This document shows, piece by piece, positions 1 to 43,292 of a stretch of 43,292 nt of DNA. The stretch comes from Jimgerdemannia flammicorona (lineage: Eukaryota). The stretch spans positions 1-43,292 of the forward strand of contig RBNJ01000078.1 in the NCBI GenBank assembly GCA_003990765.1. Direction: 5' to 3'. The notes beneath the pieces were generated by a model. That model saw nothing but the letters and a program-made list of their open reading frames with translations, did not search any database and was not told where the DNA came from. Each line of letters begins with the position of its first letter. Positions within the stretch are counted from its first letter, which is position 1. The position numbers and the translations under genes are program-made.

Positions 1-69
1 TTTGTTAGTAGTTAGATATAATAAGATAATCATTAATAAGTATATATAATAAAGATATCTTATAATCCT

Positions 70-2216: not shown

Positions 2217-2231
2217 AATAATATAAATGTA

Positions 2232-2549: not shown

Positions 2550-3279
2550 GTTTTTCAATAAGTAGATAAGTGGGCTGGTAGATCATTTTAAGAATTTGAG
2601 TATACAAATGGAGAACATAAGAAAGGAAAATAAAGCCTTATTCAAATAAGTATTATATAATTATTTCAAAGTTTATATTACTTATGTATGAAGGGCTCTA
2701 TAATATGACAAGCTGACAAGTATTAATTGGTAAACTAGATAGTAGAATTTTATCTTTAATATAGTGAAGATAAGAAAAGAGAAAGAGAGAGAGAAAAATG
2801 GAAAAAGAAGAATACCAACTCTGAAATATCAATTAGTATATACAAGACCATTTTTCTTAGGTTAGGCAAATTTTTAAAAGTAGAGAAAAAGTATACAACT
2901 GTATACAAGAGCTTGACCTGTGATCTAAGATATTACTATAGTAAGCTGTAATCTTATAATTTTGTTTTAGTATTCACTAATACTTCTTAGATAAGTTTTC
3001 AGAACCTTATAGTATAATAGTTCAAATCTATCTATTAGTTATAAGAAACAGCTATTCTCATAGCTTCCAAGCAATCTTATGAGATAATTATAAAGGAAAG
3101 AAGTATAAAAACAGACAGCATTAGGTTATACTTTTGGCTTACTTATTATAATTATTCTATATAGTAGATATAAATAATTAAAAGATTATAAGTAAAACAA
3201 TGGCAAAAATAGAATATTCAAGCATGAGTAATATCAAATATTTACTTTATTTAATTTTGTTACAGTATACCTTATATAA

Positions 3280-8243: not shown

Positions 8244-8633
8244 ATCTATGTCGTTGAAACCGCAGCAAGAAATATATGACGCATTCGGATGATTTTGAGT
8301 CATTTTGGGATTTAATATTGTGCGGATAAACGGGTGGATAAACCAAGATTCCTCAAAGGGCGATGGTATGATGACGACAACCGATCAGAGTTAGTGAGAA
8401 TATTTTGCCAAGGTGCGGAGTCGCGGGAGGTCCGGAAGCCGGGAGGTGGGGCTGGTCAAAAATTGTTATAAAAAGGCGGGAAGGCGTGGCATGACCTCCT
8501 GAATCAATTTGTCAAATTTCATCGTCGATGCGGATAGGTACCCAATTGTCCACCAATCCCCGCCCTTGTCCCAGCCTCATCTCCTCACATCTAACCATCT
8601 TCACCACTCCTCTTCATTTGTCGGACACCAGCA

Positions 8634-11182: not shown

Positions 11183-11901
11183 ATGGTTTTCTTCTGTTTG
11201 TTATTTCATGTACAAACAAACATTAGAGTTTATGTGTGTGTGCCATGTAATGACGTCACGCACATTGACAATTATAAGATAAAGAGATTTTGCAGCGAAA
11301 CATCACTTTATTCTTGTTATAGAACATTTAGTTATCTGTCTTGCTGAGCAACTTTTTATTTAGATTATGAATATAACCCGATAAATTATAGATATTGAAT
11401 TAAATTTGTTTAATTCAGAACAATCTGAGTTTATTTAAGTCTGATTTTAAAAAATATTAATTATATATTTTTTCTTATGTGGAATATTATAATCAGACAA
11501 ATATTATTTAAATAATCAATTTATTATTATTATCATTACCATTTTAAAATAATGATTAATATAGAATTTGAATTTTAGCTTTACAAATACTATTAAATTG
11601 GTTTTAATTCAAGTATATACTATGAACATTCTGATATTCAAACTTTTTTGCTTTGATATAATTAATATCTACAAGTAATTGAAAAGAACTTTAAAGCTCC
11701 ATAATTTATACAGATAATTATCTAGTAATTATAAAAAATGTTCTGGCTATTCACATTTCTCCATTCAGCAGAGTTAAGATAGAGAGGTCAAAATTAATTC
11801 TCGTACTATTAATCAAACAAAAAGTTCCTTGAATATCTGAGCCGAGTCATATTTATATAGCAGAGAAAAGAGAGAGGAGGGAAGCGAAGTTGGTAACTAT
11901 C

Positions 11902-11937
<36 letters not shown>

Positions 11938-11949
11938 ACGTGAAGCATG

Positions 11950-14900
11950 CCCCTTACATATGGGGCATCCTGCATGAAGAGAAATGCTCTGTGATCGCTG
12001 GAAGTAGATTCATCTATTTTGGAGACAGACAAGAGTTAAACAATTGAGCAAGGTGATTGAAGAGATGACAATATGGTATAAATATTATCTTTTCTACATA
12101 GTCCTCTTTTTCTACTTCCCAGTCTTCACAGTAGTATTTGTAGCCTTGGTTGCTCATAAGGTCTTGTTCAATACATACAATGAGCTTCTAGCACCAGCAA
12201 GAGTCTTCTCCATCTTTATAACTTCAAGTCATTTCATTGATATCTCCTGCCTTATACTTTTTAGATGTTGATAGAGATCAGATCCTGAGTCCCACGGCAA
12301 ATTCCTTATACATTGACCAATATCTATTTGTTGCAATTCCATGTGCGAGAGTTCCTTTTTTGTTTAACGGACTCGGTGCGAGAGTTCCTTACGTAGAGGC
12401 CTGGGAATGTTGGTCAATTCTTTGATCTGTGATGCATGGGTTTCAGCAAGTACTTCCATGTTTGAACAATCTGAAGCCAGTATCTCTATAGTCCACATGA
12501 ACTTGTTGATATTAGCCTTGCCTTTTTTTCTTAATTCATAATTTGATTTGATAAAGGTTTTGCTGGGTTTTGTCTTTCCAAGTAAACATACAGTCTATTT
12601 GTTGATATAGATTAGCCTTCATACAAACTGGAGTCCATAAGAGTCCACAAGTAATTGTATTTGATTTATATCAAAAAATACTTTGAAGGTGGTAGTTTTA
12701 TTCTTCTCTGCTTGATATGAGTTAGTGATCCAATTTGTATTATCAACTAATATATCATACTATTCATGAAATGTATTGTAAACTCCAGCAGCCATGAGAT
12801 ACAGTATAAAAACATTCTCTCATGATGCAATTGATAACTTACAGACAAGAGAGGGAAAACCAGTAATAGTGGTAATGGTGTTGGCTAGTGCCACTAATAG
12901 TGTATGCATCAGAATATGTGGTACCAGAAGTTCATTATCATCTGTATGTTGTTGAATAAATAGCTGAAGAAAATTGATAATTTTTACTGATACAGTCTTT
13001 TCTTTATTAGTGAAAGTTGTTCCTCTAAAAGCTGCCTTTTGAATATCATCTAATATGATAATATATTGAATTTTTACTAATTTCATAAATATCCTTACAA
13101 TGACCAGAAGAGTTTAGATGGTTTTTGCAAATGATTTCTAATCTTATGCTTTCTCTTTCTCTTCTTTCTCCTCTTTCTCCTCTATATCTTCAATATCTAA
13201 AGATACTATATTAGCAGCCATGTCTTGCTCATTCTGCTCATCCTCATGCCATATACCTCTGGCAGACAGTTGAAATAATTATTACAGCTTTTCTCCAATC
13301 TTTTATACTACAGATGCAGGTCACTCATTGATAATAGCCATCTCAAGTTTATCTATAAGATGCAATATCTGATATTTTGAATTTCTGAACTATTAGTCTA
13401 GATCCTACTGCTCCTCTTCTATCTGCTTTTTCTTGACTTTCTGCTATTGAGTGTTTTGATACTGTACTATCCTAGCAGAAGTGAGGTGAATCTGAAGAAG
13501 AATTTAGATAATATTGTGCAAAATCTAGTTGTAAATATCTTCATTTTATAGATTTGTTGCTGATGTATAGGTCTCCTTAAGAGATACTTACCAGATTATA
13601 TAATAGCTCATTATATCAGCAATCATCAAAGGCTCTGCTTTTTTCAAATTAATCTTCTTTCTGATTTATACAAAAAGCATGAGAAAATAAAAATAAGATT
13701 AATACTACAAATCTATAACAATCATAGGTCTACATATTACAAAATATAGAATAAATTTACATAATAATTCTCTACTTATTTCTTTTTATATCATATTTTC
13801 AATATAACTATAGAATAGGTTTTCAATGTAAGCAAAAGAAAAGAATCTAGCCTCAATAAAACCAATATGTTCTCTGGAATTGAGGTTAAGTTGACTAAAG
13901 ATTTGTATTCTCTGAAATCATAGTTTTAAGAAAAAATCTTTGCCAGATCAAGACATTTAGCATTTGGATTACCTATGAGGGAAAATACTTTTTCTGAAAT
14001 AACCTAATATTTGATAAAGTTAGTATAATAATAAAACACTATAATATTCTAAAGTAATATTATTCTTACCATATCTGTGATCTCTTAAATAACATTACAG
14101 AAAGCTTCAAATACTTGATAGTTGTCCTTTTGTTTAGAAATTAATTACTGTTCTATATCAGCTAAGTTATGCTTACCTTGAACAATCTACTGTAGACTAG
14201 TTGTAATAATATAATAGTCTTTGTCTATCTCTCCTTCATTATCTTATTTGATTGAGACTATTCTAGAATCAGAATTCTGTAAAGAAGTAGTAGCTGAAGT
14301 ATCAATATCAGAAATAGTGATTAGATTCATTGAAATGGTCATTATATATTCTTCTACAGTCTCTTTCTATATTTGTATTATACTGAAGTCTTTAATTCTC
14401 CTAAGATGGCTGGACAAACTAAGTGCATTCATGCTGCTTATATTTATTGTTTTGCTGAGTCTCTCAAGTATACTTTTGATATAGCCTTAAGATGGTAAAG
14501 CTTAATTAATATTTTTTTTTCTAGAAATTATCTAGTTTCTATAGTGTATAATTCCTTCTCACTTTCTTCTCATAGTTATTTCAGAGGTGCTCTTTTCTGC
14601 AAAGTGAAAAAAAAGTAAGTAAACTATCTGAAAATTAAAATAAATAATAATAATTTTATACTTATATTATTAATCATAGTAAATCTCTTAGTATGTTATC
14701 ACTAATTGATATGTAATTTGCAGGTACCTTTTACTTAAGAGCTACTCTTTGAGGTCTTTGGACTATAGCTAGAGAGATCATTGGTAGAGTAAAGATTATA
14801 TATAGTGTAGCTATTTGCTTAATTCAATTTTTTACTAGTTCAAGTAGGTACCATTCCCCTATTGATAATATTAAGTCTTGATGACTCAGAAGTATAACTG

Positions 14901-15650
14901 TGTGGTACTCTCTGCCTATATTTGGAGAGATTTTAACTGTTTTTCTATATGTGGAGAAAATTATAATCCTGACTACATAAAGATGAGTGATGATGAGTAG
15001 AAGTACCTCCTTTAGGATGATAGTATTTCTGTTGGACATGTAGAGATGAAATCCATAAAGAACTTTATTTCTGAGATATTATACAATTTGCTATATCAAA
15101 GTAGACTCACTTTCTACAATAAGTTTAGATATGACCAGATCTCAGAAATATAGCCATCTTATCTCATCAAAGGTTTTCTTTAGCAAAAGATTTGCTGAAG
15201 GCCAAATTGAATGCTTTATTCACCCTTACTATGAATTTATTATTAGAAGCTTGTAAAAAGATAAGGCTTGGGTCACTCTCTTTACAAAAATCTAAGACTC
15301 CCTATGTTAGGACCAATGGAGTTTAGTTAAGTGTTGGCAAGTTTGATACATCTTCAGGATAGAGTCTTTTTAGATATTTTGTATACTATTAAAGATATGG
15401 AGTAAGAGTTAATTACTTGACAATATGATAAAAACTTATATTTAAGATCATTAGCATATTAATATACCTATATAGCTATAGATAGAAGCTCCTCACTATT
15501 TGATACTCTCTTTTATTCTTTCTTACTCAGTACAACAATAGACTGAGCTGAGACTGAAAGAGCTCTGATTATAGTAATAGAGGTAGTTGACTGTTGCTGA
15601 GATTCCATAGAAGATGATCTATATTTTAAAAGACCAATTTTGAAATGCCA
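11950..15650 (-). other. AT-rich, CpG-depleted decayed repeat or gene relic, family not identified
   Basis: Long stop-riddled minus-strand frames with protein-like composition and possible intron remnants. No recognisable domain. Confidence 0.3.
12343..12390 (-). mobile_element. 18-bp 5'-truncated retroposon insertion with perfect 15-bp TSD
   Basis: GTGCGAGAGTTCCTT (12343-12357 and 12376-12390) flanks TTTTGTTTAACGGACTCG. Its reverse complement CGAGTCCGTTAAACAAAA matches the 3' end of the 1048-2216 element (AGAGTTCATTAAACAAAA). Confidence 0.75.
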
Positions 15651-16503
15651 ATAGAGCACATATTAGTAAAGTAAGATAGGTATATAGAACTCTATTACTG
15701 TGAGTTGTGATTTATAGATCACTGGTAACTATCTTCAGATAGTGTAAAAATTGTGAGGGCTATTTACTAAAGAGTCTAAGAGAGGGAAAAAAAGAGAAGA
15801 GATAAATGAAAATTCCTAAACCATATACAGTATACATAATAAAAAGAATTTTCAAAGACTCTATTATTATCTGAATGTATTATAGAATTTCTGAAGTTTG
15901 GAATTATATCTCTCTGATTGAATATAAGACTATCTCTATATAAAATATCAATATAAAACTAATTTATATTAAGTCTATTATAGAATCAAAAAACTATAAT
16001 ATTATTAAAAGTATTTTGAAATAAGAGCAGAGTAAAAAGATAGTACTATATATTTTCAAAGTATTCAATACCAAAGCTATTCAAGAATATTTAAATAAAG
16101 AGAGAATAACTTATAAAATTTACTAATAATTATATATCAATTCTAATAATTCTAATAAATATATAAATATCACTCATCAAGAAAATATTTCTGGATGAAG
16201 TTAGGAATTAAATCTTAAGAAGTGAGAATTACCAGAAACTCTGAAGAACTAAGGAAAAAAATGAAAATATTAAGAGTAAAAGTATATAGAGATAGTTCTA
16301 TATATTCTTTAATATACTATATAGAAGAAATTTAACAAAATCAGACAAACTGTATATAAAATAATATATAGTAAATGATATAATTACAAATAAATATGAT
16401 AAAGCTCTCTACTTTTTAGAACTTAACTGTAGTTGCAGTTACTCTACCAAAATACCTCAAAAAGAATTTACCAAACTATACAAAGCTTTTTAAGCTCTTT
16501 CTA

Positions 16504-16534
<31 letters not shown>

Positions 16535-16840
16535 GACTCAATGTCCTGCAGATTTTTTATTGAAAGGGAACCTAGACTATGTTGGGTTCTTGGGTGTACT
16601 CTTTCGGTCATTAATATATAGCTGGGTTTTTCCTAATGGTAGAGAGAGTATGATATACAAAATGAGGTACAGGCTACTTTGCTCTGCTGCACCTGGCATG
16701 GTCAAGCTGCTGGACAATAACTAGCCTAGGTTAATGGGGGGACAGTGCTTGATGGGTAGTGGGAGAGAGTTTTGGCATATAGTCTAGGTTCTCTTCCAAT
16801 AAAAATCTGTAGAACATAAAGTCCATTAAATAAAAAAAAA
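16504..16840. mobile_element. Head-to-head pair of retroposon 3' ends
   Basis: 16581-16840 aligns to ~1960-2216 and ends in poly(A). 16504-16580 is poly(T) plus an inverted copy of the last ~50 bp of the same element. Confidence 0.75.
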
Positions 16841-17267
16841 GAAAAAGAAGAGACTCCATCAAGTAAAGAACTTTACTTTCTTTCCCAATACAAAATGGAA
16901 AGGTGATGGCTTCCAGATGAAGGTAGGCCTGTTCAAAACAACCAGCTAGTTGGCACTATGGAAAACAAACAAATAGCCAAAAAACTAAATGATCCGGAAG
17001 GCTACGCCAAAATCTGAGGCAAGAATAGAATTGAAGAAAAAAGTAATTCAAATCAAATATCTCCTTTATGACTAATTCCCGCCATCTTGGCTACGGCCGG
17101 GATAACAGCAATGGTATGCTGGATGCTAATGAGGAGGCCTGCCAAGAGGCAAGGAAATAACGTCTTTTCAACCACCAAGCCACAATTGCTAGGAATCCGT
17201 GACGTCATTCTTTTCGCCACAAAACTTCGTCGCAGCACATCTACACAATAAACACCTTCATTCGAAT

Positions 17268-19871: not shown

Positions 19872-22800
19872 TTACGCGCCAAGCCCAGCCCGCCCCTTCC
19901 GCATAATGGCTTCGATGGGGATTGTGATGCCCGTGTTATCAGTACCCAGACTTTCTCCCTTCCTCCATCTAAATAACGAATGGGCAGAATAGAATAGAAT
20001 GAGTCAAAGGCACGTCCATTCCTTAATAAACAGTGCACACTCGCCAAACAAAGAAAAAGAAAGCATCGGCCAAACAGAAACTCACCCCATCGCGGCAAGC
20101 ATGCGGTGTCCCATGTTGTCTTCGCCCAATGGGCTGACATGTCCACCCACAACAGTCCTTTGGATCGTAGCGGCCTCGCCCTTGGCTTTACCGGTAATGA
20201 GGTCATCCTTGGGAATGCGATGACGTCGTAAAATGCTCGATTTAGCCGAGATGTCCGTCTGTGCGTCTCTAATGAAACGGTTAATGTAACGACGGTCCGT
20301 AGGCAGGAAGGTTCGCGATGTTTTGGTAAAGACGGTAAACCTGGTAGTCGAACATAGAATGAGATAAATTGTGAGCACAAGTCAGGAGAAAACAACCAAC
20401 AATATATGTCCCAGTTAAATTTACTCGCAAAAGCAGACCTCTCGTATTTGGTGATGTGCAAATTGTAAGCGGTCGCCAGCAAATCAACTTGCTGTAGAAC
20501 GATGCGCGGCATTGGAGCCAGTTGTAAGCTAATTGTTGCGTGAATGCAACAAAAAATAAAATCAGATAGGCGTGAGATAATGGGCTGAAAACCTGGCTAT
20601 CCGTTACGATATTGACGCGACTCGGGAGATCCATAATCATGCGTACCTTGAAATCGAGTTATCCTTAATGAATGTTTGAATTGTTCTGGATAGAAACGCA
20701 AGTGGTTAAGCACGTCGCCGATCGATAAAGAAATAGCAAATGCAACATATAAAGTGCCATTTACCGATCAACTTCCATCAGATCGATCAATTTATCGCCC
20801 TTTCCTTTCTTGTCCTTCCTTTCAACCGCGTACTTTGCACGCCGAGCAGCCTTTTTCTCGGCTTTTTTGCGTTTCTTTTCCAATTTGGACGAGAGTGCGA
20901 CTCGATCAACCTTGCGGCTGTGGCCGCTATTTGCTGCTTTCTGTTGTGCACGCTGGAGGCGTGCTTTGAGGCCTGAAAAAGACAATAGGGCAATTAAGGT
21001 GCTGGTAAAAAACAATGATTCCCATGTCTGCTACAGGTTATTATTCTATTTCGAAGAATCATAATTAATGAATACTTGCCTCCGTGTAGCGATGGCGGCA
21101 CCTGATCAAACGCGCCTTTCAATCTCTGTTGAAACTTTTCATTCATCTCCTTTCGTGTCCTGGCGTTCGCAGCCTTCCCCGCCTGCTCAATTATCCACTT
21201 CTCGTCCATGACCTCATCTACCTCGTCGTCCCATCCAAAGCGACCAGCGAAATATGCCAAATCGTAAACCCCGTCGTCATCGTCATTGTCATCGTCATCC
21301 ACCTCGTAGTCATCCACCTCGTCGTCATCGTCATCGTCATCGTCATCCACCTCGTAGTTATCCACCTCGTAGTTATCCACCTCGTCATCGTCATCGTCAT
21401 CTACCTCGTAGTTATCCACCTCGTCGTCATCGTCATCGTCATCCACCTCGTCATCGTCATTGTTATCCACCTCGTCTTCTTCGCTTTCCCCAACGCGATC
21501 CCCGCTATCGGAGCTTAGCAAGCTCTCTTCATTAATAGGCAAATCATGCCGCAGATTCAAAGCGGTCAACGCTCCTAACAATTGCTTGTTCGCGGGCAAG
21601 TCATAATCATCCGCATCATTCATAGTCGTGGTATTTTGTATGTAATCGATAAACGCTTCCGAATCCTCATCGTCCCCACTGTCGCCAAGGTTGATATCAT
21701 CTCTCCGGATGATGGCCTCCTTCCCCTTTCGTTTGGAGACATTTTCGTCCGGCCCCAGACGACTGCGCCTACGCTCGCGTTTACGCTTTTTCTGCTCTCG
21801 TCGTCGTGCCTTCCTTTCAACCCTCTTCTGCCTCATGTCCTCCTTTCTACTGTTGTTCGAGAAACCATCATCACGCTGTTTATGGTTTAGGAAGAGGGCG
21901 GAATTTCCGCTCAACAGCATATTCGCATCCACGTCATCGCATGATGTCTGAGAAGGAGCGAAACTTCTGAAGGCATCGGGGTCGCCATGGGGATCAAGAA
22001 CCCAGCTTACGGGTGCAACTTCTAAATTTTTGGCAATATCTATCGCCCACCCGGCGTTTTCCTTCGTTGAAGCTTCATCTGACATGCTTTGCTGCCCTTG
22101 CAATTGGACATTATCTATCTGATCGGAGCCTTCATCGTCATCATCTTTCGCCAGGTCAAATCCCCCATATGAATTCATAACATATACGGTCTCCTCGGCA
22201 TCTGACTCAACAATAATCTGGCGCCTCTTAGAACAGAAAAGATTCGGATCGCTACTCTTCGGATTGGTATCAATATTCTCGATTTGATTCTCCAGAGCTG
22301 AAGAGACGGGTTCTTCATCCGCCGTCATTGTGGATGGATTCCGTCGATTCGCGGTAATCATATTAACGCTACCGTACTCCAAGGTACCTCCCCAGTCGAG
22401 GTCGACATTTGACGGGACAAACTCAAGAGCCATAGTCCGCGATGGCTTGTCATTGTCCTCGTCGTCGTCATCCTCTTCTTCGTCCGATTCCAAATTTGCA
22501 TCTCGCAGTCGGATCGCACGTTGGGGCGACAGCGGCTTTGCGTCTTCCTCGGCCCATTCAAACGCCTGCATCAGAATCTCCTCCTCAGATTCTATAAATA
22601 CCAATGCGATAGAATTTCAGGTAGGCATGAATGTGAAACAAAGTTGGATGTGATGGCAGACATTGAAGGGCAAAATGAAAAGAGACCTTGTTCCTCTAGA
22701 AATTCCTCCTCGCTCTCCAAATTTTCGGAATTGAGCCCGACTGCAGCGCCGACATCAGGCTGACCGCTTTGCTTTTTTTTGTCATTGTTTGGTGTCTCAA

Positions 22801-31300: not shown

Positions 31301-34177
31301 CTCTTCGATGGTGCCAGAATCTTGCTGCGTTGTACCAGAGTGTCCTTGATGGTCTGCGCGATTCCGAATTGCCTGTCAGAGTTGAAGCTGCTTTAGCTCT
31401 GCAGCCCATGATCCGTCATGAATCTGGTATGTTTTTGTGTGCTACAATAACAACTAATTCAACAAAATTACGCTAACTGGGACGCCTATTTCGGCATCAA
31501 TATTTCACAGTGAGGAATGCCATGATTCCCAGCTTACCGTTTATCATGCAAGGTTTGTCATAGTCAATATCTTCTAGATAATGAATAGGCCCAGAAATTT
31601 ATTCACTCTGCTTTAATGATATAATAGAGCTTCTCAACTTGACGAATGAGATCGACGTGGACACTCTCGCCAGCGTTATGGAGGAATTTGTGGAGGTGTT
31701 TGCCGAACAACTGGCACCATTCGCAGTTCAGCTATGCTCGCAATTGGTAACATCGGCTGAAGGTGCTTGTAATTATATCACCCAAAACATTGTATATGCA
31801 ACAGCTTCTGATCGTTGTGCCGTCCTATTGTTTTGTAGCGTGATACCTTCCTTCGTATCATGGAAGACGTCACAAACGCGCAGCACAAGATCACTGAGGA
31901 AGAAGCGCTAGATGGTTCTATCGACCTTGATGAAATGGGCGATAAGACCATGGCTGCAATGGGGGTCTTGAAAACAATAGGCACCTTGATCTTGAGCTTG
32001 GAGAGCACGCCCGATGTAAGAAAGTCTATCAACAATTCGATGATTGTTGATTTGTTTCTTATTCACTGCCTTTTCATCAAGCCACGTCTTGTGCTCACTT
32101 CTGGACTCTCTCCCCTTCGCCCCCTCTCCCCGGCCGAATATGGACACATCTTTTTAGGTTCTTCAACAGCTCGAGAATGCTTTGCTGCCGGTTATCAAGT
32201 TCACATTGGAGAATTCAATCATCGGTGAGACATCAGTGTTCAGTTCTTTTATGGTAAAACTGTCTAGTGCATTTATTGTCATCTTGAAAGCAACTAAGCG
32301 TACAACTCCAACGAATTAAACAGATCTCTATGACGAGGTGTTCGAAATCATCGATAGTTGTACCTTTTCCAGTAAGCAAGTTTCTCCTACCATGTGGAGT
32401 GTATTCGAACTCATCTACATGGCTTTCAAGGAGTCTGGCATTGATTTCATGGACGGTAAGATTTTAGGGGTTATGTAACTATCAGTGACACTGTGGGTTT
32501 GTAAATTCCATTTGATGAGTGTTCCTAACAAGCTTGATTTATAGAAATGCTCCCAGCTCTCGACAATTACATCTCATATGGACGGGAGGTCTTCATGACC
32601 AATGAGAACATTCAGCGGATGATTTTTGATATTATAGAGACTGTAAGCGTCCCTTGCCATCTTGACGAAATTGCCCTTCTTCCGGTCGGCTTCGCGAAAT
32701 ACTCATCCATCTTGTAACTTTCAGGTAATGAAAAGCGATCGCCTCAATGAAAGCGATCGGGTTTGTGCATGTAAGCTAATGGAAGCTGTCTTGCTAAATT
32801 GTAAAGGCCGTGTGGATCAGGTATGTGTTTTGCTCAGGATATTACACCTGTGAGCATGATATGTCGCATTTTGAACCAGCTTTAACAGTGTTTCTTTGAT
32901 CGCAGCATGTTCCGGCTTTTTTGAACCTTGCTTTTGGGTATATTTCAACCAATAATATGAAGGGCACTGAATTTAAAGTTCACTGCCTGGAGGTGGTTAG
33001 TATTGTGTTTTCTCTCATTTTTCTGTTATTAGTCATTGAGTCATGTAAAAAAAATTGTTAATGCGAACACCACTACTCCATTTACAGGTGATCAACGCTC
33101 TGTATTACAACCCACTGCTGACGCTACGAATCCTTGAAGAAAATCAATGGACTCAAGGCTTCTTTACGTTATGGTTCCAGACCCTTGAAAAATTTTCCAG
33201 GGTTCACGATAAAAAACTTGTCATCGTCGCGTTGTGCTCGCTACTTGAGTTGCCCGCCGCCCAGTTACCGGCATCCCTGCAGGCAGGCTGGTCAGAGGTG
33301 CTAAACGGCATTGTGAACGTTTTCAAGACATTACCACGGGCTGTTGAGAGTGAGTTTTGCGTCGTTCTCTCTCATCAATGTATCAGATTTCCATCCATCT
33401 TTGTCGACCCAGCTCCTGTTCGTTTGCATTGCAGACCGCGAGCAACTCGAGAAACTATATGAAGAGGGAATTGATAGCGAAGATGATCTTGATGATGAGC
33501 TCAAGGAGGGTGGAGGATCAAGTGTGGAAGGTGACGCGGACGATGAGGAAGTAGACGAAGATGGTGCGTATTTTCTCGTGAATTGTGTTCTATCAAGATG
33601 TCTCTTGACGTGGTCAGACGGTAGCTATGACATACTAACTTGTTTGCAAATGGAAATGCGTGCACAGACGATGAAGATGTACATGACGAAGACAATGAAT
33701 ATCTCGAATATTTGGCTCAACAGGCGAGTTATTCCTGATAGACGTTGGTGAACTATGATATGTCCTGGTTAGATTTTGCACGTTTCTCAATTATTAACAG
33801 CACTTGCTGCAACGTCATTTCTTAGGCTGCAAATTCCTCACAGACTGAGGACGAAGAATCAGACGAAGAAGGTATTCAAGAGGAAGTACTATTTGAGTCG
33901 CCACTGGACGAAATCGATCCCTACATTCGGTTTGAAAATGCGTTCCGAGGGCTCCAACAGCACAATCCAGACTCGTACACACTTCTCACCAAAGACTTGC
34001 CTGCAGAGCAACAAAATGTTATCATGCAGATTCTGTCGAAGGCTGGTCAGTGTTCGGATTTTATTTTTTTATTTTTTTATTTTTTAATGAGTTTTCAGCG
34101 CACTGACGTTGTCGTGTATACGTTTTTCATCTCAATGTATAGATTCGAATCGTCGAAACGTGGCTGCTGCACGTTGA
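28344..34177 (+). CDS. NMD5: Importin-7/8 family karyopherin (Nmd5/Sxm1-like), many exons
   Basis: IBN_N start [75 protein letters not shown], and an acidic C-terminus. Confidence 0.9.
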
Positions 34178-34561
34178 TTGACGACACGAGCAAAGATCAG
34201 ATACGTATGGATGCAAAACTAGACCAATAGACATTACCATTTTCGACTAAACCATAGCTTAGATTGATGTATGTGACATGGCATTGGGTTTATCCCATTA
34301 AGGAAACATGTATTATGATTTTGGTGTTCATTCAGTGAAGATGTAGTGATCATATTATTTTTGTATTGAAATTACAATTTTCTTTAGTGTATCTTTTTGG
34401 CAGACTTTCATTTCAGACAATTAGATCCTGATATTATATTTCTGAATATATCTGTCAGAATGGGATCAGAAGGTCAATGTTTTTATATAATTTTCTTTTT
34501 TGAGATATTTTAGAATAGTTGGTTATGGATAGTGCTCTGAACGGATGGATTATAATACATT

Positions 34562-34604
34562 GATGATAGGCACTACATGGCATTGCTATGTAACTCCTAC
34601 TATC
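34562..34604 (-). ncRNA. Candidate omegaRNA scaffold hairpin at the element right end
   Basis: Minus strand GATAGTAGG-AGT-TACATAGCA-A-TGCCATGTA-GTG-CCTATCATC forms an extended stem-loop 15 nt after the Fanzor stop. The stem mismatches are repaired by reverting A->G. Confidence 0.5.
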
Positions 34605-34618
34605 TCCTGTATGGCTTC

Positions 34619-36058
34619 TCAGAGAAGGACCAAGGCTCCATCAAGCAATGCCCACAAGATCCTATGGACTTCATTCTCATCTCTGTCTATTACCATGCCA
34701 CATCTTTGGCAATTGTACACCTCAGACCCTCTTATCATCTGCATGTTTTCACACCAGCTATAGGTCTTGGATGTGTAGACTTCATTTTGGACAACAACAT
34801 AGATATGAAGCTCCTCTGCCTTGGAGATCAGATATTGACAGAAATGAAAGTGCCCCCATTGGAGCATTTGACAAACTGTGCAAGATCTAATCTTCCTTGT
34901 CTTACAGTTAATCATCTAGAATATCTCAAACAGAGGTATGACAATGGCATCAAACTCATGTATGAAGAATATAACTATCTTCTTGTAGATCTTGGATTGA
35001 AGACATAAGAGTTCTTATTGTATGCAGGCTGCTGCTATATTGAATCACTGAGCTTTCTTCTGCTTGTACTTCAAGTTGGATGATGCCAATTTGTCTTTTC
35101 TAAAAATGAGGTTGTCCATATGTTGGCAGAGGTGAATGATACATCTAATGTTATACTGTCTAATTTTGCCTACACCCTTTGTAGGAGAGTACTAAGTGAA
35201 TGGTATATAAATATCTGGATCAATGGCAATGGTATGAATATCCACTTGGGTTTCACAGATCTGCTTTTACATCTCATAAATCCAGAAAAATGTCCAATTA
35301 CCAGTCTTCCATAAATATGTCAGCTTGCAATTACTTATGATTTTGTGTAGTGATAGTTATTTGTTGTTCTTATGCTTCTTCTCGAAATGAAAAGGCCAGA
35401 GTATATATTGGTCTTCACATATTGAAATGAGAGACTTGTGACATTTAGAGTATAATAACATATCATAAGTATATAGATATAAAACATAAAAGCAATCTCA
35501 GAAATCCTTTGTAAAATTCTGAGTATAGATGATGATGGTCTAATCTGATTCCTTGCAAGTTCAAAAGAATAGATAATGTACTGGAGTTTCTGGTATATAT
35601 TATATGTTGTACTTGATGTTCTCATCTCTTGCTACTAGTGTCTTGTCAATGGCTTCATCAGTAATATTATCAGGTGCTTGTCTGAAACAACCTTAAAATA
35701 GTATCCTGATGCAAATAACTATCCTGCAAAACTTACACTCACCCCAGACTGCCATCTTCTGAAGTTTGGTATTCTCCTGGTCATCCTCATCTTTCTCAGA
35801 TCTCACATCATTATAGAGCTGGTATTTTTCCTATACAGGCTGTGCCTTGACTCATGTTTGCTGTACTGGTCCAATCTGACAATTCTTGCTATAACATTGG
35901 TAATGATGATTCCAGTTGATGATAGTATTAAAGGTAAATCTTACCAAACTCAGTCATCACTTGAGGAGCTTCTTCTGAGGGTGATTTGGATAAACCTTAA
36001 CCTTCAATGTGTAATTAAGAATGTCTTCTAAGCACTATTACTTATTGCACACTATCAT
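34619..36058 (-). pseudogene. tnpB: Fanzor2 / TnpB RNA-guided RuvC nuclease pseudogene (~480 codons, no frameshift)
   Basis: A single frame reads TLKVKVYPNHPQKKLLK**LSLVRFTFN (OrfB HTH), IAIDPDIYIPFT*YSP (RuvC-I DPG), MLQWGHFHFCQYLISKAEE...NEVYTSKTYSWC (RuvC-II), YNCQRCG (Zn finger) and DRDENEVHRI (RuvC-III). It has more than a dozen in-frame stops. The start ATG at 36058 is tentative. Confidence 0.9.
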
Positions 36059-36704
36059 TGCCTTTAGTTTTGTTATACATTTTTTGTCTGTTCTAGTGCT
36101 CTTGTCAATAATGAGCAGCTTATCTTCTCTGCATATAACAGATGAAGATAGTATTGATGGCAAGGATATCCTTAGTGAGCTCCTGCTCATCAGAGGTCAA
36201 CTCATTGAAGAGAACTATGAGTTTTGCAGAATAAAAGGAGAATATATATTGGATAAAGTTGAAGGCAAAACAACAGAGTTAGTCTCAGTGAGTAACCACA
36301 ATCTCCAAGACAATTCCTCTGCTTGTACATTTCAATAAGGTCTTAAGCCCTAGGTACTTGAAGTTGACACTGGAACCAATATCACTGAGAAGCTTATAAT
36401 TCAGGAATCAGGAATAGAGGAGTTCCTTCTATCACTTGAGGTTGTCTTTTTGTTTAGCACTTGATACATATATATAGAGATATTCTTTTGGGAAGGGGAA
36501 GGAGGAGGAGGTAGAGGTGGAGACAGAGGTAGAGGTGTTGTCAACATCACTAGAGGTCAATTCAGAAAAAAGAAAAGAAATATTATAAAGGTGAATACTA
36601 GAGAGAGATATCTTAGCAGTAATCTTTCCTTGTTTGAGCCAACAGTATAAGATGTCTGGTGATACCCTGAGCTTCTTAGTTGCCTGATATGCAGACAGAT
36701 GTAT
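36015..36704 (-). pseudogene. tnpA: IS607-type serine recombinase TnpA pseudogene with N-terminal MerR-like HTH
   Basis: ATKKLRVSPDILYCWLKQGKI (HTH), YIYVSSAKQKDNLK** (YARVSS..QK.DL.RQ), SDIGSSVNFK..GLKTLL, EIVVTH*D*LCCFAF (HRDRLCRF) and EQELTKDILAI..IF. The start appears eroded ATG->ATA at 36704. Confidence 0.88.
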
Positions 36705-36864
36705 GTAAAGAGAAAAGGAATAAGAATGTCTATTTGCACAATAGTGTATATACAATGTTTACTTATATATACTCACCTAGTCCTCTTAGTCAGATCTTCA
36801 TAAAATGCAAAGAAAGGTAGACTTTATTTCTTGTGGCTTATTAAGTATTACTAAGTAGAATTGT

Positions 36865-37009
36865 TATTGAGATTACAGGTTATAACTCAATATAGCACTC
36901 AATATAGATAATTTGTGGCGCAGTGGCATTGGGGTAACATCATCAATAATCGCATAAAAAGTGTGTAACATTAGGTAATCAATAAAACATTCCTCCTGAG
37001 TTTACAACA
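36865..37009 (+). repeat. 5' LTR (TA...CA, eroded TG...CA)
   Basis: Ungapped alignment to 41596-41740 with 13 transitions. Confidence 0.92.
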
Positions 37010-37079
37010 AAGGTTATAAGTCCCAATAGTGAAAGCGGATAATATATACACCTCTTTAGTATATGCTATACTACAACAT

Positions 37080-40000
37080 ATGAAGATGTCAAACCCAGAA
37101 AGCCCAAGCTCAAGTGCTGTGGCACCAAGCCCAGCAAGTAACACAAGCAGAGTGGGTACCGGTATAGGTACTATAGTCCCTCTAGTGGGTGCCCTGGTGA
37201 TTACTCTGATGGCGGCTATGATAACAAAAAGGACAATTCCTGTCTTCGATGGTAAGGATTATGCCATATGGGTGTACCATATGAGGAATCTCTTGGAGGA
37301 ATGCGGTCTAGAGGGCTACTGGAAGCTACAGGCTCAAGTAATGGGATATGATGTAGCGAAGGATCGTAAGGCATTGAGGGAGATTACATTTACTCTATCG
37401 AATAAGCAAATGAAACTCGTTATGAATGCTATGACAGTGAATGAAGCCTGGGAGACCCTACGTGATTATTATTAACAAGTATCTACGTCCAACAGATTCC
37501 ACCTGAAAAGACAGTTATTCAATCTATGGAAGAAGTCCAAGGAGAGCATTCAAGAGTATGCCAACTGTGTCAATGATCTGATGAATCAGGTGAATTCTCT
37601 TTCTATGCCAGCGGACCTTATCAGGGAGGAAGACAAGGTCCTGGCCCTTATACAAGGCCTTCCCGACATGTTTAATGTAGTTGTGTCTGCTATGTGGGAA
37701 TCCAATAAGCTCTTGGACTATAAGTACATCGTCATGAGCCTATTAAATAATAAATCGAGGCAGAACAATGGCGTAAATGAAGACTATGATGAGAAAGCAT
37801 TCTATGGCATGCATGGTCGAGGCAAAGAAAAGCCAAGTAAAGGATGAGGACAACATAATGGTCAACATGCCAAATTTGGTGGTAAGTACTTCTACTGTGA
37901 TAAGCCCGGACATTGTGTCCAAGACTGTAATCTTAAGAAGAAAGAAAAGGGAGACCAATGTGGTCAAGTAAATATCATAGACACCAACAATCAAGGTAGC
38001 AATGGAATGTTTTTTGTGGAGATAGAGAACTGCCAACATGCTGATATAAGCTATATGTCTGACAGTGCTAATGTGTATAGTGAAGAAGTTTGGCTCATGG
38101 ATTCTGGTACAATACAACATATGACAGTGCACCATGAATGGTTCTCTATATATGAGAAGTTCAAGCATCCCATACCTATCAAGCTAGGTGACAACAATGT
38201 AATCTATACTCAGAGCAAAGGAAATGTCAGTATATATCTGCACAGAAAGGTTGAAGAACCCTCAGGCACCTTTGCAGATATATTATATGCTTCAAATATA
38301 GGCAAAAATCTCTTCTCGATAGGACAAATAATGGCCCGAGGAGACAAAGGAGTAAACATACACCCAAACGGAGTAACAGTAATCAATCTAAAGAACAATA
38401 AGGAATTAATGTATGCATCAAAAAGAGGAAATCTTTATGCAATCAACAGTATACTGAACAGTACATCGGTACATTCTGCAATGGCAAACGACACCTGGCG
38501 TATATGGCATGAATGATTAGGATACATCAGCCAGACAAGCTTAGAACAGATGATGAGGAATAGCTCAGTGAAAGGATTGCCAAACTGTATATCTCCGAAC
38601 TTCTTTTGCGATGACTGCACGGTGAATAAGGCTTCTCAGAAATCTTTTCAGGAATGGATGAAGCAAGCAAATGGTATACTCGACCTTATACATATGGACA
38701 TCTGCGGTCCCATGCGTATATCATCACACTCCAGGAAGAAGTACTTCATTACTTTCATAGATAATTACACTTGTAAGGCCCATGTATACTTCCTCTCTGC
38801 AAAGAGCAAAGCATTCGAGAAATTCAAAGAATTCAAGGCGAGTGTGGAGAATGATACGAAATGTTGGATAGGGATGCTATACTTGGATAATAGGACAGAA
38901 TCCGTAAATAAGTCCTTTAAACATTTTTTAAAAGAGCATGGAATATGATATATTAGAATGGCTCCCTATATACTACAATAAAATGGCATGGTAGAATGGT
39001 TCAATCAAACGATCATCAAGATGGCCCAAATGATGATGAATGCAGCTGGCCTGCTGCAATCCTTCTGGGCCAAAGTATTGAACACAGCAGTGTATATATG
39101 TATGTAATCAATGCATTTCTCGAGCCTTATGCAAAGAGAGTGACATATAGTCTAAGAATGATAACCTTACATCTGAAGAACTGTAGAGTGGATCCAAGCC
39201 CGACGTCTCACACTTACGGACATTCAGAAGCGAGGCTTACATATTGGATAAAAGCAGAAATAGAGGAAAATTCGAGCCTAAGATGAATAAGCATATATTC
39301 CTTAGATACAATGGATCAGCATATAGACTGTGGAATATACAAAAACATAGTATAATCATCTCTTGCGATGTTCAGTTCAAAGAGAAAGCAAAGGAAGGTT
39401 GTGTGGAAATTTCTATACCATAACCAATCCAACAGCAAGTGGAATTATGCCAACAGTGAGCATGTATACTACACCAATGATTCCAACAACAATGGCACAA
39501 CCTATGCCAATGAGATTGATAGTGTAAATACCTACGAGACCTCCTGAACTGAGAATTATGGAGATTTCAGATAATAAAGAGGAAGATATCTCTCTGAAGG
39601 GTAAGAAGAAGTGCAAATCTGGGATAAATAATGAAGTCCAAGCAGATCTGGGAAATTACTGGAACCCACCCAAGTCATCTCGTCACAAATAACATTATGT
39701 GAACTATGCCTGCAAATACGCTTACATAGCAACAATCAGTGAGCCAGCACACTATGACAAAGCCATTCATTCGAATGATAAAAAGGAGTGGAAAAAGGCT
39801 ATGGACGAGGAGTATAACTCACTCATCGAGAATGACACGTAGAACTTGGTCCCTCTTCTGGCAAATTGACAAGCCATAGGATCCCGATGGGTGTATAAAA
39901 TTAAGTGCAATAGCAACAGTGGCATAGAATGATACAAGGCCCAATTCATGACAAAGAGGTATTCACAAGACTTTGAAGTCAACTCGACGAAACATTTTCC

Positions 40001-41338
40001 CTGGTATTTAAGCTTACTTCACTTAGAATACTTCTTGCAATCGGAGCCAAGTATGACTATGAGATACATCAAATGGATGTTAAGACAGCCTTCCTAAATG
40101 GAGACATAGATACTGAACTATATGTTCTTCAACCACAAGGATACAAACTCTATGACAATGAGAAGGAGTTAGTATGCAGACTATGCAAAGGCCTCTATGG
40201 CATAAAACAGGCAGTGAGGCTGTGGAATCGAAAGATCGATGATTATCTTATAGAAGAGAATAGGTTCAAACAATGTGAAGCAGACCTATACATATACACT
40301 CGTTATACATCCTCAGGAATGGTGTACTTGGGAATTTGGGTCAATGATATCATTCTGGTCAGGATGACAAGTGAGATCAACGAAGTAAAGGTAGCATTAT
40401 GCAAAAAGTTCAAGATGACAGATATGGGTGATGCATCTTTCCTTTTGGGGATATCCATCATATATGACAGGAGCACACATACTATATACCTAAGCCAAGA
40501 AGCCTACATTCAGACAATACTCGAGCAATTCGGCATGAGCGAGTGCAAGCCAGTCAGAACACTGATGGAGATGTCTGTGAGACTAAAGAAGTCCGATACA
40601 CCTGATGACAATGACATTCCCTATCGACAAGCAGTGGGATCCCTTATATATCTAATGCTCAGGATGAGACCCAACCTATCACATGCAATCAACAAGGTAG
40701 CACAATATGCATTATGCTATGACAAATCGCATTGGATGGCAATCAAGTGTATATTCAGGTACATTAAAGGTACAAAGAGCTATATGCTCAATTTGGGTGA
40801 TAAAGGAGTTAAAAGATTAAGCAGGAGTACTGTTACAGTAAGCCTTTCTGGCATATGTGATGCTGATTGGGCTGGGGATTTAGATGACAGAAGGTCTATG
40901 ACAGGATACTTCTTCTATCTCAATGACAGTGGAGCCATTTTGTGGCAAACTCATAAGCAATCATCAGTGGTGACATCATCTATGCAAGCAGAATATCAAG
41001 TGTTGTCAACGGTGATGAAGAAGGCTATCTGGCTTTGTGAACTACTAAAGAATCTGGAATTCCCTCAAGAATCTATAACTATATAACAGGATAACCAATC
41101 CACCATTGCTTTGGCAAAGAACCCTATATATCATACAAGAACCAAGTATATTGATATACAGCACCATTACATATAAGAGTACATTGAAAATGAGACTATA
41201 TGCCTGTTATATACTCCTATGGAGCAAATGGCAGTAGATTCGCTAACAAAGGCCCTTCCGAAGGCAAAGTTTGATTTTTGCATACAAGAAATGGATATAA
41301 TGACAAGCAACGAGCAAATAATGGCAAACGATGGGTAA
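37080..41338 (+). pseudogene. copia gag-pol pseudogene
   Basis: FDGKDYAIW (gag), YCDKPGHCVQDC (zinc knuckle), WLMDSGTIQHM (protease), HMDICGP (integrase), MDVKTAFLNG and WVNDI (RT), CDADWAGD (RNase H). Multiple stops and frame breaks. Confidence 0.9.
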
Positions 41339-41595
41339 AAATAAATATTACGGTAAAACGATGAGTAGAATGAGTGTTACAGCAAATATTTGTAATGGAA
41401 ATCTATAATATTGCTCAGGATTTCCATTTTTTCACTACTTCTCTTATCTATTTTTATACTTATAAGTGGGGAATTTTGACCTTTTTTGGTCATCTAGATA
41501 GTATCCCATTGGTAATATTTTGTTTTCTGCTTAACTTAGCTGAAGATTGATTAGTTTTTATTTGTATTTGCATTCTTTATCTCATTAAGCAGGAG

Positions 41596-41740
41596 TGTTG
41601 AGATTACAGGTTACAACTCGATATAGTACTCGATATAGATAATTTGTGGTGCAGTGGCATTGGGGTGACATTATCAATAATCGCGTAAAAAGTACGTAAC
41701 ATTAGGTGATCAATAAAACATTCCTCCTGAGTTTATAACA
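41596..41740 (+). repeat. 3' LTR (TG...CA)
   Basis: Begins TGTTGAG, ends ATAACA, and matches the 5' LTR. Confidence 0.92.
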
Positions 41741-42270
41741 ATTATCATCAAGTATTCCTAAGTAACTAATTTCAATGGTCTATGACAAATTGAATTCTTC
41801 ATATGACAATTGTACAAATTGAGTCAGTCACTTTTAAAATATTACTTTACCTATATAACTTGAAATTGATCTCATTATTAATAAAATAGATTTCATAGGA
41901 TTTTAATCTATTATATCACACTCATGAAAAGATGCAAAATTGAGGGAGTTTTTTAACATATGAATTAAGCAGAGAGGAGATAAAATTTCTATCAAAGTTA
42001 TAGTCAAATTGTGAATTTTAAAAAAGTAAAAACTAATTATTTATATCAAATTTAAATGATTAAAACTATATTATACAAAAGCAGGCCAGTACAAAGTAGG
42101 TCAGCAGGTAACAGCCAACAGTACACTAACAGCTGACAGTAGGTCAATTTGAAATTGACAAAACCAGCTGATAGTAATATTAAAAGCAGGCTGACAGAAT
42201 AGGCTGAAATCTGAAATTTATAGATAGAGCAGATCACAATCTGTGAAAATGATAGAGATGACAGAGTCCT

Positions 42271-43041
42271 GCTTCTTTCTCCACTATCTTACTAGTCATA
42301 AGGTTTGGTAGGTAACTTTCTGAGTCTTTTGTCCACAACTTATATCCTCTTTTCCTCAAATTGGTTTGCTATATCTATTACAGGATAGTGAGAGAGAGGC
42401 AATAGTAATAAGTTGCCTCTTTATCAGTATCAGATCAGTGCTTTCTTTACTTTTTTGCAGTTTTTAATATCTCTGGCTATATCTAGAGTATATATATCTG
42501 TTTTGGTATAATATTTTCTTCTCTTTACTATTACTAATAAGATATTATCTTAATATATTATAGACTATATATAGAGTCAGCCAATCTTGAATATCAAGTG
42601 CTAATATAGATTATCTGTAGGTTTGCTGGTATCTGTAGTAAAGTTCTCTGAGCTTTGGTGAGCTTTTTAGTGAGTATAATTCTAGTATAAGTGATTGTCT
42701 TTCAGAAGAAGTCAGAATGAGAGAAGAGATAGTCATCATAGATAAGAAGAAAGATAATTACAGTAGACCAGTAGAGTACCAGGCTGGTAATAATCATCAG
42801 GGCTAAGGTAGATACTATATTGGTGAGATCTTTTAATTAGCACTAAGTGGTTAAATATTAGATATCACTCTTGGCTACTTTTGACAATATATAGAATTGG
42901 GCCCTAGTTATTAGAGATAGCTGAGGAGCTCAAAGCTACTCTGATCAGATATCTTAACTATACTCAACTAGAACTAGGAGCTCATATAGTAATATGTATA
43001 ATTGAATTCTACAGACTTGAGTAGTGAGATATTAGAGATCT
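42271..43041 (+). mobile_element. Second, more eroded copy of the 1048-2216 retroposon (5' ~770 bp)
   Basis: Colinear with ~1050-1815 and shares essentially the same left boundary. Differences are mostly C->T and G->A. It is cut at a poly(T) tract. Confidence 0.85.
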
Positions 43042-43292
43042 CCTTTTTTTTTTTTTTTTATAGTTACTTAAACTTCTTTATTATTAAAATATCTATAAAA
43101 ATAATATACAATTCATAGATCTCATTAATCATCAATAATCTCACTCTAAGGAAAATCAATCAAATCTCCTAAAAGACTTATCAATCAATACTAACTTTCT
43201 ATTACACTCTTTTGTCATCCAGTACCAACTGATCCCAACTCTCTAAGATAATATTCTATATCTTCTTTACTACTTCCAACTCTCATCATCTC

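Follow-up and report, generated by a model that had tools for sequence, protein, structure and literature searches.

Which element left two broken, overlapping reading frames on the minus strand beside an importin-like gene in contig RBNJ01000078.1 (assembly GCA_003990765.1) of Jimgerdemannia flammicorona, and does it belong to a eukaryotic genome? The window analyzed here is the whole stretch of 43,292 nucleotides of this contig, read on the forward strand. An earlier reading of the letters, hereafter the original prediction, had proposed an IS607-type TnpA recombinase and a Fanzor2 RNA-guided nuclease at 34542..36780. Our analysis indicates that positions 34542..36867 and 41746..41778 (minus strand, ~2.36 kb without a nested copia retrotransposon) are very probably the decayed remains of a single eukaryotic transposon of the IS607 family, with tnpA and a Fanzor2 gene. 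The copy is non-functional DNA at present, and tblastn searches of the whole window with the relatives P0001 and P0021 located it once. Throughout, P#### denotes protein relatives, with protein searches run against 5.8 billion proteins, and L### denotes related DNA loci from metagenomes, prokaryotes, or giant viruses.

Two overlapping pseudogenes of the IS607 and Fanzor2 type

Translation of the minus strand between 34542 and 36780 in three frames revealed two recognizable proteins that are broken by stop codons only. Translation, homologues, and tblastn confirm the two overlapping frames proposed at this place. The claim that neither frame is shifted also holds: P0001 residues 22 to 486 align to 36028..34625 (E 5e-148) and P0021 residues 1 to 257 to 36704..35931 (E 2e-85), each as one colinear segment. 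The two minus-strand frames other than the nuclease frame matched 0 Pfam families at E<=0.1.

The Fanzor2 pseudogene (34619..36547, minus strand), a TnpB-family RNA-guided nuclease gene delineated by Pfam, homologues, tblastn, and alignment, starts with an ATG at 36547 and contains 642 codons plus a stop, with 22 internal stops. The predicted TnpB/Fanzor identity stands, but the predicted size of ~480 codons does not. Read with X at the stops, the nuclease frame matches the Pfam family Cas12f1-like_TNB (E 3.1e-12, 46.9 bits; cutoff 26.3). Its best relative is the 487-aa protein P0001 (E 2.8e-146, 49% identity, 98% coverage), among 20 relatives at E<=1e-3 out of 785 candidates, and an exhaustive phmmer search returned 2484 representatives at E<=1e-3, including 15 at E<=1e-30. 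The encoded protein can be divided into an N-terminal domain (NTD), a helix-turn-helix (HTH), RuvC-I DPD, E.YTSK, a zinc finger, and DRDEN; a basic stretch resembling a nuclear localization signal (NLS) was observed by eye before the HTH. From 36547, the N-terminal part reads MLTTPLPLSPP...GLRPYxNVQ...LWLL...NSxFS and aligns with the 647-aa P0036, with the long open reading frames (ORFs) of L001, L005, and L020, and with those of giant-virus L082, cyanobacterial L107, and SAR202 L110.

The motifs of this frame were compared with three published descriptions. A C-terminal D ... [TS][TS]xx-C4 zinc finger ... RD is the signature of Fanzor2 (Bao & Jurka 2013, PMC3627910), and it is found here in the TNB match and in columns that are invariant or nearly so among 11 aligned sequences (D443 P444 [G445], E589 T592 K594, D621 R622 D623 N625), although the first zinc-finger Cys of the window copy is replaced by Tyr. 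RuvC-I DPG together with a repositioned glutamate marks Fanzors and pro-Fanzors (Yoon et al. 2023, PMC10711439). Both occur in the relatives, which show IDPGVRTPF and QNEAYTSKTC, with IPPF at the canonical-glutamate strand; the window has DPD, consistent with a G>A change. Thus, from the predicted motif list, E.YTSK and DRD.N (as DRDEN) are present, but RuvC-I and the zinc finger are altered in this copy. Finally, Fanzor2 has a structured N-terminal extension (NTD/RuvC-R) that other solved TnpBs do not have (PMC11832414). The corresponding motifs PYWN..LWLP..NSWFS are conserved in 11 sequences, and the window retains them with W>stop.

The nearest solved structure to the family profile is mimivirus Fanzor2 9b0l (E 4.8e-51; runner-up 9e-20), to whose residues 82 to 85 the family NSWF aligns. 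Residues 53 to 130 of this protein, ApmFz2, form the N-terminal domain unique to Fanzor2, in which Asn82 and Ser83 touch the guide-RNA pseudoknot (PMC11832414). A Fanzor2 host should be a eukaryote or a eukaryotic virus, and the locus has a spliced flanking gene, an exon matching a Mucorales P450 reductase, and a nested copia.

The TnpA pseudogene (35928..36704, minus strand), defined by homologues and tblastn, encodes an IS607-type serine recombinase with an N-terminal MerR-like HTH, as predicted, although it is longer than the predicted ~230 codons: 258 codons plus a stop, with 11 internal stops and a start ATG that is now ATA. The TAA at 36044 is one of the internal stops. Because the relatives' TnpA proteins extend past 36044 and the window frame still matches them beyond it (...GLSKSPSE...), the end was set at the TAA at 35930..35928. 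The catalytic-serine motif YxxVSSAKQK is retained. The best relative, P0021 (E 4.9e-73, 62% identity, 100% coverage), is one of 15 among 135 candidates; all 15 carry Resolvase (PF00239), and 10 of them carry MerR (PF00376) as well. In P0021, MerR (residues 8 to 40, 6e-8) lies ahead of Resolvase (residues 74 to 204, 4.6e-19), the order of an IS607 serine recombinase, and the window aligns to this protein over its full length.

The nuclease N-terminal domain is overprinted on tnpA

The two genes share a dual-coding stretch of 620 nt (35928..36547, minus strand), in which frame translations and alignment place the Fanzor2 N-terminal domain in frame +1 over tnpA. To see this arrangement across relatives, the survey took in 31 loci where tnpA is intact (at least 185 aa) and is followed by a TnpB match. 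In 26 of them, the nuclease ORF lies in frame +1 and begins near the tnpA start, with an overlap of 533 to 770 nt (L001, L020, L035, L036, L041, L045, L047 to L049, L052, L056, L059, L062, L064, L065, L082 to L085, L107, L110, L112 to L114, L122, and L123). They take in the giant-virus loci L082 to L085, Lyngbya L107, and seven Chloroflexota loci. Most of the surveyed loci, like the window, thus have the IS607 layout of a tnpB that follows tnpA on the same strand and overlaps it. Across the 28 loci with an offset frame, the nuclease frame has a mean of 1.8 stops within tnpA, versus 12.7 in the other alternative frame, and the NTD motifs fall in the overprinted part. The TnpB match is in the same frame as tnpA in L109, L111, and L121, and there is no overlap in L074 and L091; these five may have decayed or may be genuine exceptions.

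Gene callers often truncate the nuclease because its N-terminal part overlaps tnpA: P0001 was called at 487 aa, versus a 636-aa ORF in L001. It is possible, though somewhat doubtful, that the overprinting of the N-terminal domain on nearly the whole of tnpA (0.53 to 0.77 kb) is a selected arrangement that binds nuclease and recombinase inseparably across the clade, meaning here the IS607 elements of cyanobacteria, Chloroflexota, giant viruses, and fungi. IS607 ORFs are said to "often overlap" in PMC6188088, and overlapping and separated IS607 layouts are distinguished in PMC9956272. The word "overlap" is absent from the main text of PMC10711439, PMC3627910, and PMC11832414, a statement that covers text; a published figure may already depict this layout. 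If new, a clade-wide overprinting would account for truncated gene calls (487 versus about 640 aa) and would be relevant to the cloning of Fanzor2/TnpB nucleases as genome editors.

Element ends and a nested copia retrotransposon

The right end (RE; 34542..34674, minus strand), established with a covariance model and a 14-relative alignment, holds the guide-RNA (omegaRNA/reRNA) scaffold and spans the last 18 Fanzor2 codons plus a 77-nt non-coding tail. The window and 14 relatives share the terminus ...AATCCATCC (...CCATCC), and flanks diverge after the next base, which is G in the window (34542) and in 13 of the 14 relatives and A in L004. The right boundary of the original prediction is therefore exact. 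Its left boundary at 36780 is not: the relatives' similarity carries on to about 36854, where copia follows.

The left end (LE) is split. Its proximal part upstream of tnpA (36705..36867, minus strand) was aligned to L007 and to four further relatives; a subterminal motif, CTACTTAGTAATACTT, lies in it at about 36842-36857. The distal part with the true terminus (41746..41778, minus strand) reads CCATTGAAATTAGTTACTTAGGAATACTTGATG from 41778 to 41746 and aligns with the LE termini CCGTTGCAAATTTTTGCTTATTAATACAG... (CCGT...) of L004, L005, L016, and L020. It holds a second subterminal motif, TTACTTAGGAATACTT, and its terminal triplet at 41778-41776 is CCA in the window and CCG in the relatives.

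Between the two parts lies a copia-type long terminal repeat (LTR) retrotransposon (36868..41740, plus strand), foreign to the IS607 element and recognized by its LTRs, its target-site duplication, and Pfam. The LTRs (36868-37009 and 41599-41740) are 92% alike, and the duplication reads GTTAT (36863-36867) and ATTAT (41741-41745). Pfam matches comprise Retrotran_gag_2, Pol_BBD, and RVT_2. This copia still has long open stretches (a 369-aa reverse transcriptase piece and a 222-aa protease-barrel piece) and a CpG observed/expected ratio of 0.3 to 0.5; its age and its decay are both less than those of the interrupted IS607 copy.

The split was also visible in a contig of X2; X1 and X2 are two sequencing runs of one organism (small shares, 0.17 and 0.16) whose RNA nature is a guess, neither run being recorded as RNA. 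This X2 contig joins 36864 straight to 41746 onward, in a version that has C instead of the window's T at three positions (36773-36864, 41746-41775). Because of this join, the copia split of the LE is independently confirmed. The copia-free junction may mean that the same organism has another copy, or an allele, with fewer mutations.

Three relatives with both ends measure 2141 to 2257 bp. In these three, the similarity of LE50 to the reverse complement of RE50 was within the shuffled range, the flanks were unlike, and there was no target-site duplication; as in IS607, terminal inverted repeats and target-site duplications are thus not seen. CCG (CGG on the other strand) stands at both ends, in four loci plus the window (as CCA) for the LE and in 13 of 14 relatives plus the window for the RE. 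For IS607 itself, the termini and the target are each described as carrying a GG dinucleotide (PMC6188088). The CCG here differs from it, although, read as CGG on the opposite strand, it may represent the IS607 core.

The nearest relative at the DNA level with long flanks, L007 (positions 3381-5528 of a 90-kb contig), is also decayed, with TnpA and TnpB broken and a GC content of about 0.5. Beside it, at 8493-8879, lies a copia RNase H-like fragment similar to the copia of the window. This contig is probably from a related fungus.

The right end encodes a covarying scaffold of the predicted guide RNA

The 77-nt tail behind the nuclease stop codon is far better conserved than the coding sequence. 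Single-sequence folds were used to place a 40-pair structure manually on a MAFFT alignment of 17 relatives. One hairpin lies in the last codons and another spans the stop codon; there is also a long compound hairpin, and a long-range helix, GAUGGA/UCCAUC, takes in the final bases of the element. In the 17 relatives, 95.5% of the paired cells can pair, compared to 39 to 46% with the partners slid, and 15 pairs changed on both sides, compared to 0 to 3 in the slid controls. In a model-fitted alignment of 48 distinct sequences, these values are 93.5% (38 to 45% slid) and 32 of 40 pairs (13 to 19 slid). None of 500 shuffles attained the observed values in either set. The long-range helix covaries in the 48-sequence alignment, with GC 26 and AU 14 at one pair.

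Covariance model R1, derived from this structure, has one match in the window, full length, at 34542-34674 (92.6 bits, E 3.4e-19). Across 100 loci it matched 54: 44 of the 80 from metagenomes, all 10 from prokaryotes, and none of the 10 from giant viruses. The listed matches all lie on the plus (tnpB) strand, and those checked, including the 10 prokaryote loci, are at the tnpB 3' end. Rfam holds no matching family; the sole match at E<=1, in L005 and L007, was the unrelated IhtA (24.8 bits versus a gathering threshold of 76). RNAalifold on the wide alignment A3 recovered 13 pairs only, with MAFFT gaps misplacing two hairpins. An outer helix AUGCA/UGUAU seen in single-sequence folds was rejected: it is incompatible with the stop-codon hairpin's outermost pairs, and in alignment A4 it reads as interrupted (C.A) in L002 and L007.

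In IS607 TnpB systems the guide RNA runs from the RE into the flank (PMC10711439). By this rule and the RE position, the right flank at 34522..34541 (minus strand) would be the putative guide source. The family has a conserved RE RNA scaffold, and RNA-guided cleavage by its Fanzor2 is a prediction. Two metagenome loci, L029 and L030, keep the invariant GGGCTTTGCTTGGTGGAGC core and the ...CAATCCATCC end, while the stretch immediately upstream does not align with the zinc-finger/DRD coding sequence; they may be rearranged or non-autonomous derivatives.

CpG-centered hypermutation inactivated the copy

Decay was measured against the majority base of 14 relatives, with four relatives as controls. 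Of 316 differences, 188 are C>T (103) or G>A (85), versus 65 reverse changes, and none of the four controls treated alike shows such an excess. Only one of 33 consensus CpG sites is kept, the other 32 now being TG (16), CA (9), TA (6), or AG (1). C>T is less frequent elsewhere (CpA, 21/71; CpC, 11/52; CpT, 6/56). The CpG observed/expected ratio is 0.03 in the element, about 1 in genes, and 0 to 0.1 in AT-rich repeat blocks.

The coding damage has the same character. In total, 33 in-frame stops interrupt TnpA (11) and Fanzor2 (22). At the 11 TnpA stop positions, the relatives carry Arg (6), Gln (4), or Lys/Gln (1). Among the 17 Fanzor2 stops scored from 36058, 16 are at Arg/Lys, Trp, or Gln and 1 is at Asn/Ser. 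The commonest replacements (R>C/Y/H, V>I, A>V, D>N, P>L, and G>R) are all transitions. The original prediction had named C>T hypermutation as the inactivator and had read the stops as derivatives of Arg, Trp, and Gln codons; the base changes and CpG losses bear out the first claim, and the second is corroborated by 27 of the 28 scored stops, which fall on Arg, Gln, Trp, or Lys of the relatives. The signature is CpG-centered and transposon-targeted, as would be expected from deamination of methylated repeats. The AT-rich blocks of the window (1-1000, 2001-5500, 11001-16900, and 41001-43292; GC 0.18 to 0.35) have lost CpG to an element-like degree (observed/expected 0 to 0.2), and the intervening genes are at about 1.0.

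Classical repeat-induced point mutation (RIP), which converts CpA to TpA as in Ascomycota, is an unlikely alternative source of these changes. It would fit the C>T changes at CpA (21/71) and CpC (11/52), which exceed those of the controls, and the stops that derive from CAA/CAG and TGG. However, the RIP indices of the element are not RIP-like (TpA/ApT, 0.81; [CpA+TpG]/[ApC+GpT], 1.50), and CpG loss is near total (32/33), with both strands often struck at one site (TA, 6). In addition, the host looks Mucoromycota-type from its P450-reductase match, and RIP machinery is not known in fungi of this type. CpG-centered deamination of methylated transposons remains the preferred explanation.

The copy lies in the 3' untranslated region of a fungal gene

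The stop codon of the importin-like gene is at 34175-34177, and the copy was inserted 365 nt 3' of it, within what is now the 3' untranslated region (UTR). Following record 1 of the spliced contig X1, this UTR (34178..34613, plus strand) runs antisense to the scaffold and crosses the RE. The X1 contig (3638 nt) covers 34142-34613 and thus enters the element by 70 nt; pieces of X2 end at 34303 and 34529. Contigs of the flanking gene are spliced, with GT..AG at 13 of 14 listed joints and introns of 75 to 142 nt. One exon has a weak TPR_IPO11 match (E 1.6e-5, 24.6 bits; cutoff 27), which makes the label importin-like plausible. For a P450-reductase exon, the best match was a Mucorales protein (59% identity), ahead of proteins from other fungal phyla (48% at most), in a comparison confined to proteins of 773 to 2205 aa. 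A protein-atlas placement of the reductase gave Eukaryota, with Ascomycota the most frequent group, which is too coarse to be informative. From these data the host looks like a Mucoromycota-type fungus. No X1 or X2 contig covers 34765-36270, an absence with no bearing on whether the element is expressed. Short X1/X2 pieces at 36271-36524 and 36670-36704, which are loose at either end, were discarded as low-complexity or paralogous matches.

The entry of the flanking-gene contig into the RE raises the question of co-option, in which the host would use the copy or its RE, for instance as a terminator or 3' UTR of the importin-like gene. Such a role appears quite improbable. The contig goes 70 nt into the element and ends at about 34613, but contigs cannot show true RNA ends, and one of the two runs reaches that far, X2 stopping at 34303 and 34529. 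There is no evidence of conservation, and both element genes are dead. We thus continue to regard the copy as non-functional.

The weakest rival, in which misassembly or contamination brought in bacterial or giant-virus DNA, is suggested by the prokaryote-style architecture, by nearest named prokaryotic relatives in cyanobacteria and Chloroflexota, and by giant-virus contigs holding relatives at about 30% identity, but it is excluded for practical purposes because an independently assembled spliced contig passes from importin-like exons through the 3' UTR and the RE to 34613 and because the P450-reductase match is fungal; moreover, CpG loss matches that of the repeat blocks of the window, with genes near 1, a eukaryotic copia is nested in the LE with a copia-free junction in X2, and the closest relatives, Glomeromycota proteins among them, are far nearer (49 to 62% identity despite decay) than any from prokaryotes or viruses. 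The original prediction had named such a chimera as one finding that would overturn it. Its placement of an intronless IS607-type TnpA plus Fanzor2 unit in a fungal chromosome is instead supported, by the homologues P0001 and P0021 and by the linkage to the flanking gene.

Relationship to known Fanzor and IS607 systems

A quick maximum-likelihood (ML) tree of 43 rows places the window as sister of P0001/P0002 (SH-aLRT 97), inside a family clade of 10 rows (99). Joined by six metagenome rows (100), this clade adjoins a cyanobacterial/Chloroflexota group, apart from the giant-virus group. Among prokaryotes, the nearest relatives are Lyngbya, with 46% identity confined to the 206 C-terminal residues, and Dehalococcoidia/SAR202. 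Intact copies of the family abound in soil metagenomes. The cyanobacterial L107 and SAR202 L110 keep E.YTSKT, and the zinc-finger cysteines that follow are replaced (EAYTSKTVSWTG and EAYTSKTRSWDG).

Members of the family have been catalogued before. P0017, whose match to the window has 52% identity at 45% coverage, is identical to CAG8580437.1 of Cetraspora pellucida, and the supplement of PMC10711439 (Yoon et al. 2023, Nucleic Acids Research [NAR]) tables this protein and one of Diversispora epigaea as "Fanzor." The Diversispora entry matches the P0016/L020 subfamily. The suggestion that the lineage might be undescribed consequently fails, and the window copy is a new, dead member of an already catalogued family. 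These Glomeromycota entries are tabled gene-model proteins, the Cetraspora model being a fused and shortened TnpA-Fanzor call; the accessible part of PMC10711439 does not describe their ends, RNA, or tnpA overlap, or this host. A literature search for "Fanzor" with "Glomeromycota" found no paper, and the supplement of PMC10530073, one of the large Fanzor censuses of 2023, gave no match for the Glomeromycota names tried.

The nearest counterpart with a solved structure is ApmFz2 (mimivirus L79; PDB 9b0l). The family shares with it DPG, the repositioned glutamate in E.YTSKTC, DRD.N, an IS607 TnpA partner, the N-terminal N-S-W (aligned to N82-S83-W84), and an RE-encoded guide RNA whose scaffold pairs its last bases long range. 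It differs in being ~21 to 27% identical to the aligned giant-virus contig sequences, in standing apart from the sampled giant-virus contigs in the tree, and in an RNA model that matches 0 of 10 giant-virus loci. In addition, the scaffold here is about 133 nt versus a reported 205 nt, and this copy is dead and has a fungal host.

The architecture is equally that of bacterial IS607/ISXfa1 and the cyanobacterial pro-Fanzors, with a MerR-like HTH plus resolvase TnpA and an overlapping downstream tnpB. As in IS607/ISXfa1, there are no inverted repeats and no duplication, and the first base after the RE is fixed, as described for ISXfa1 in PMC10711439. The RNA model matches all 10 prokaryotic loci. 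The proteins are set apart from these prokaryotic relatives by an identity of at most 46% (again over the C-terminal 206 residues) and by the basic NLS-like stretch before the HTH. Fanzor2 has been known in IS607-type elements and in Saccharomycetes since Bao & Jurka 2013 (PMC3627910). The Saccharomycetes entries (Ashbya, Eremothecium, S. cerevisiae EC1118, and Torulaspora) are likewise from fungal hosts, and that of Torulaspora shares PFWNE...SWFS; however, they belong to a different fungal phylum. In the accessible part of PMC3627910, TnpA-bearing Fanzor2 elements are named only from Acanthamoeba and viruses, not from fungi.

Several points weigh against the assignment as an IS607-Fanzor2 element. 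The profile searches proposed with the original prediction were answered in part: Cas12f1-like_TNB matched, but HTH_OrfB_IS605 is weak in the nuclease frame (E 0.0069, 16.3 bits, under the cutoff of 21), and Resolvase and MerR appear only via homologues, the decayed TnpA frame itself matching 0 Pfam families at E<=0.1, so that its identity rests on homologues. The ML tree contained no named Fanzor1 or Fanzor2 references, and the choice of the label "Fanzor2" over "pro-Fanzor-like IS607 TnpB in a eukaryote" rests on the host, the 9b0l match, and the signature motifs. The sequences on which pairs were counted had also served in part to derive the RNA structure, which favors that structure, and the model-fitted alignment (A7) is biased in the same sense. 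The putative crossover core CCG, instead of the GG of IS607, and the candidate adjacent motif and guide were deduced from few ends (four LE termini and the window). Finally, the evidence on copy number, empty sites, and past mobility in this genome is confined to the one copy in this window.

Proposed mechanism and significance

The steps of transposition and homing proposed here are drawn from the IS607 and TnpB literature. An intact TnpA, as a serine recombinase, would excise the element as a double-stranded circle and insert it by crossover at a short core, leaving CCG at both ends and neither inverted repeats nor a target duplication. Fanzor2 would bind the ~133-nt RNA transcribed from the RE, which would extend into the flank, and the nuclease would cut the emptied donor site beside an adjacent motif, so that the element could be copied back (homing or retention). 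At this locus, the copy was inserted 365 nt past the importin-beta-like stop codon, and copia entered the LE afterward. The copy was ruined by C>T/G>A hypermutation targeted at transposable elements and near saturation at CpG, with 33 stops and the loss of the tnpA start and a zinc-finger Cys.

A lone dead copy matters little in itself, since the link between Fanzor2 and IS607 is established and the family is already in a published Fanzor table. What it adds is the anatomy of a fungal (Mucoromycota/Glomeromycota-type) branch, with exact ends and a probable CCG core, a covarying 133-nt scaffold, and a full-length 642-codon nuclease, together with a relative order of events from the nested copia. 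It also documents CpG-centered, transposon-targeted hypermutation in an early-diverging fungus. Reconstruction of an ancestral nuclease, envisaged in the original prediction, is needless, as intact natural relatives such as L020 exist and could be tested directly in its place.

Elsewhere in the window and unrelated to the element, a 540-aa open frame at 20994-22616 (minus strand) carries very long acidic repeats, with D/E runs and VDNYEVDD units.

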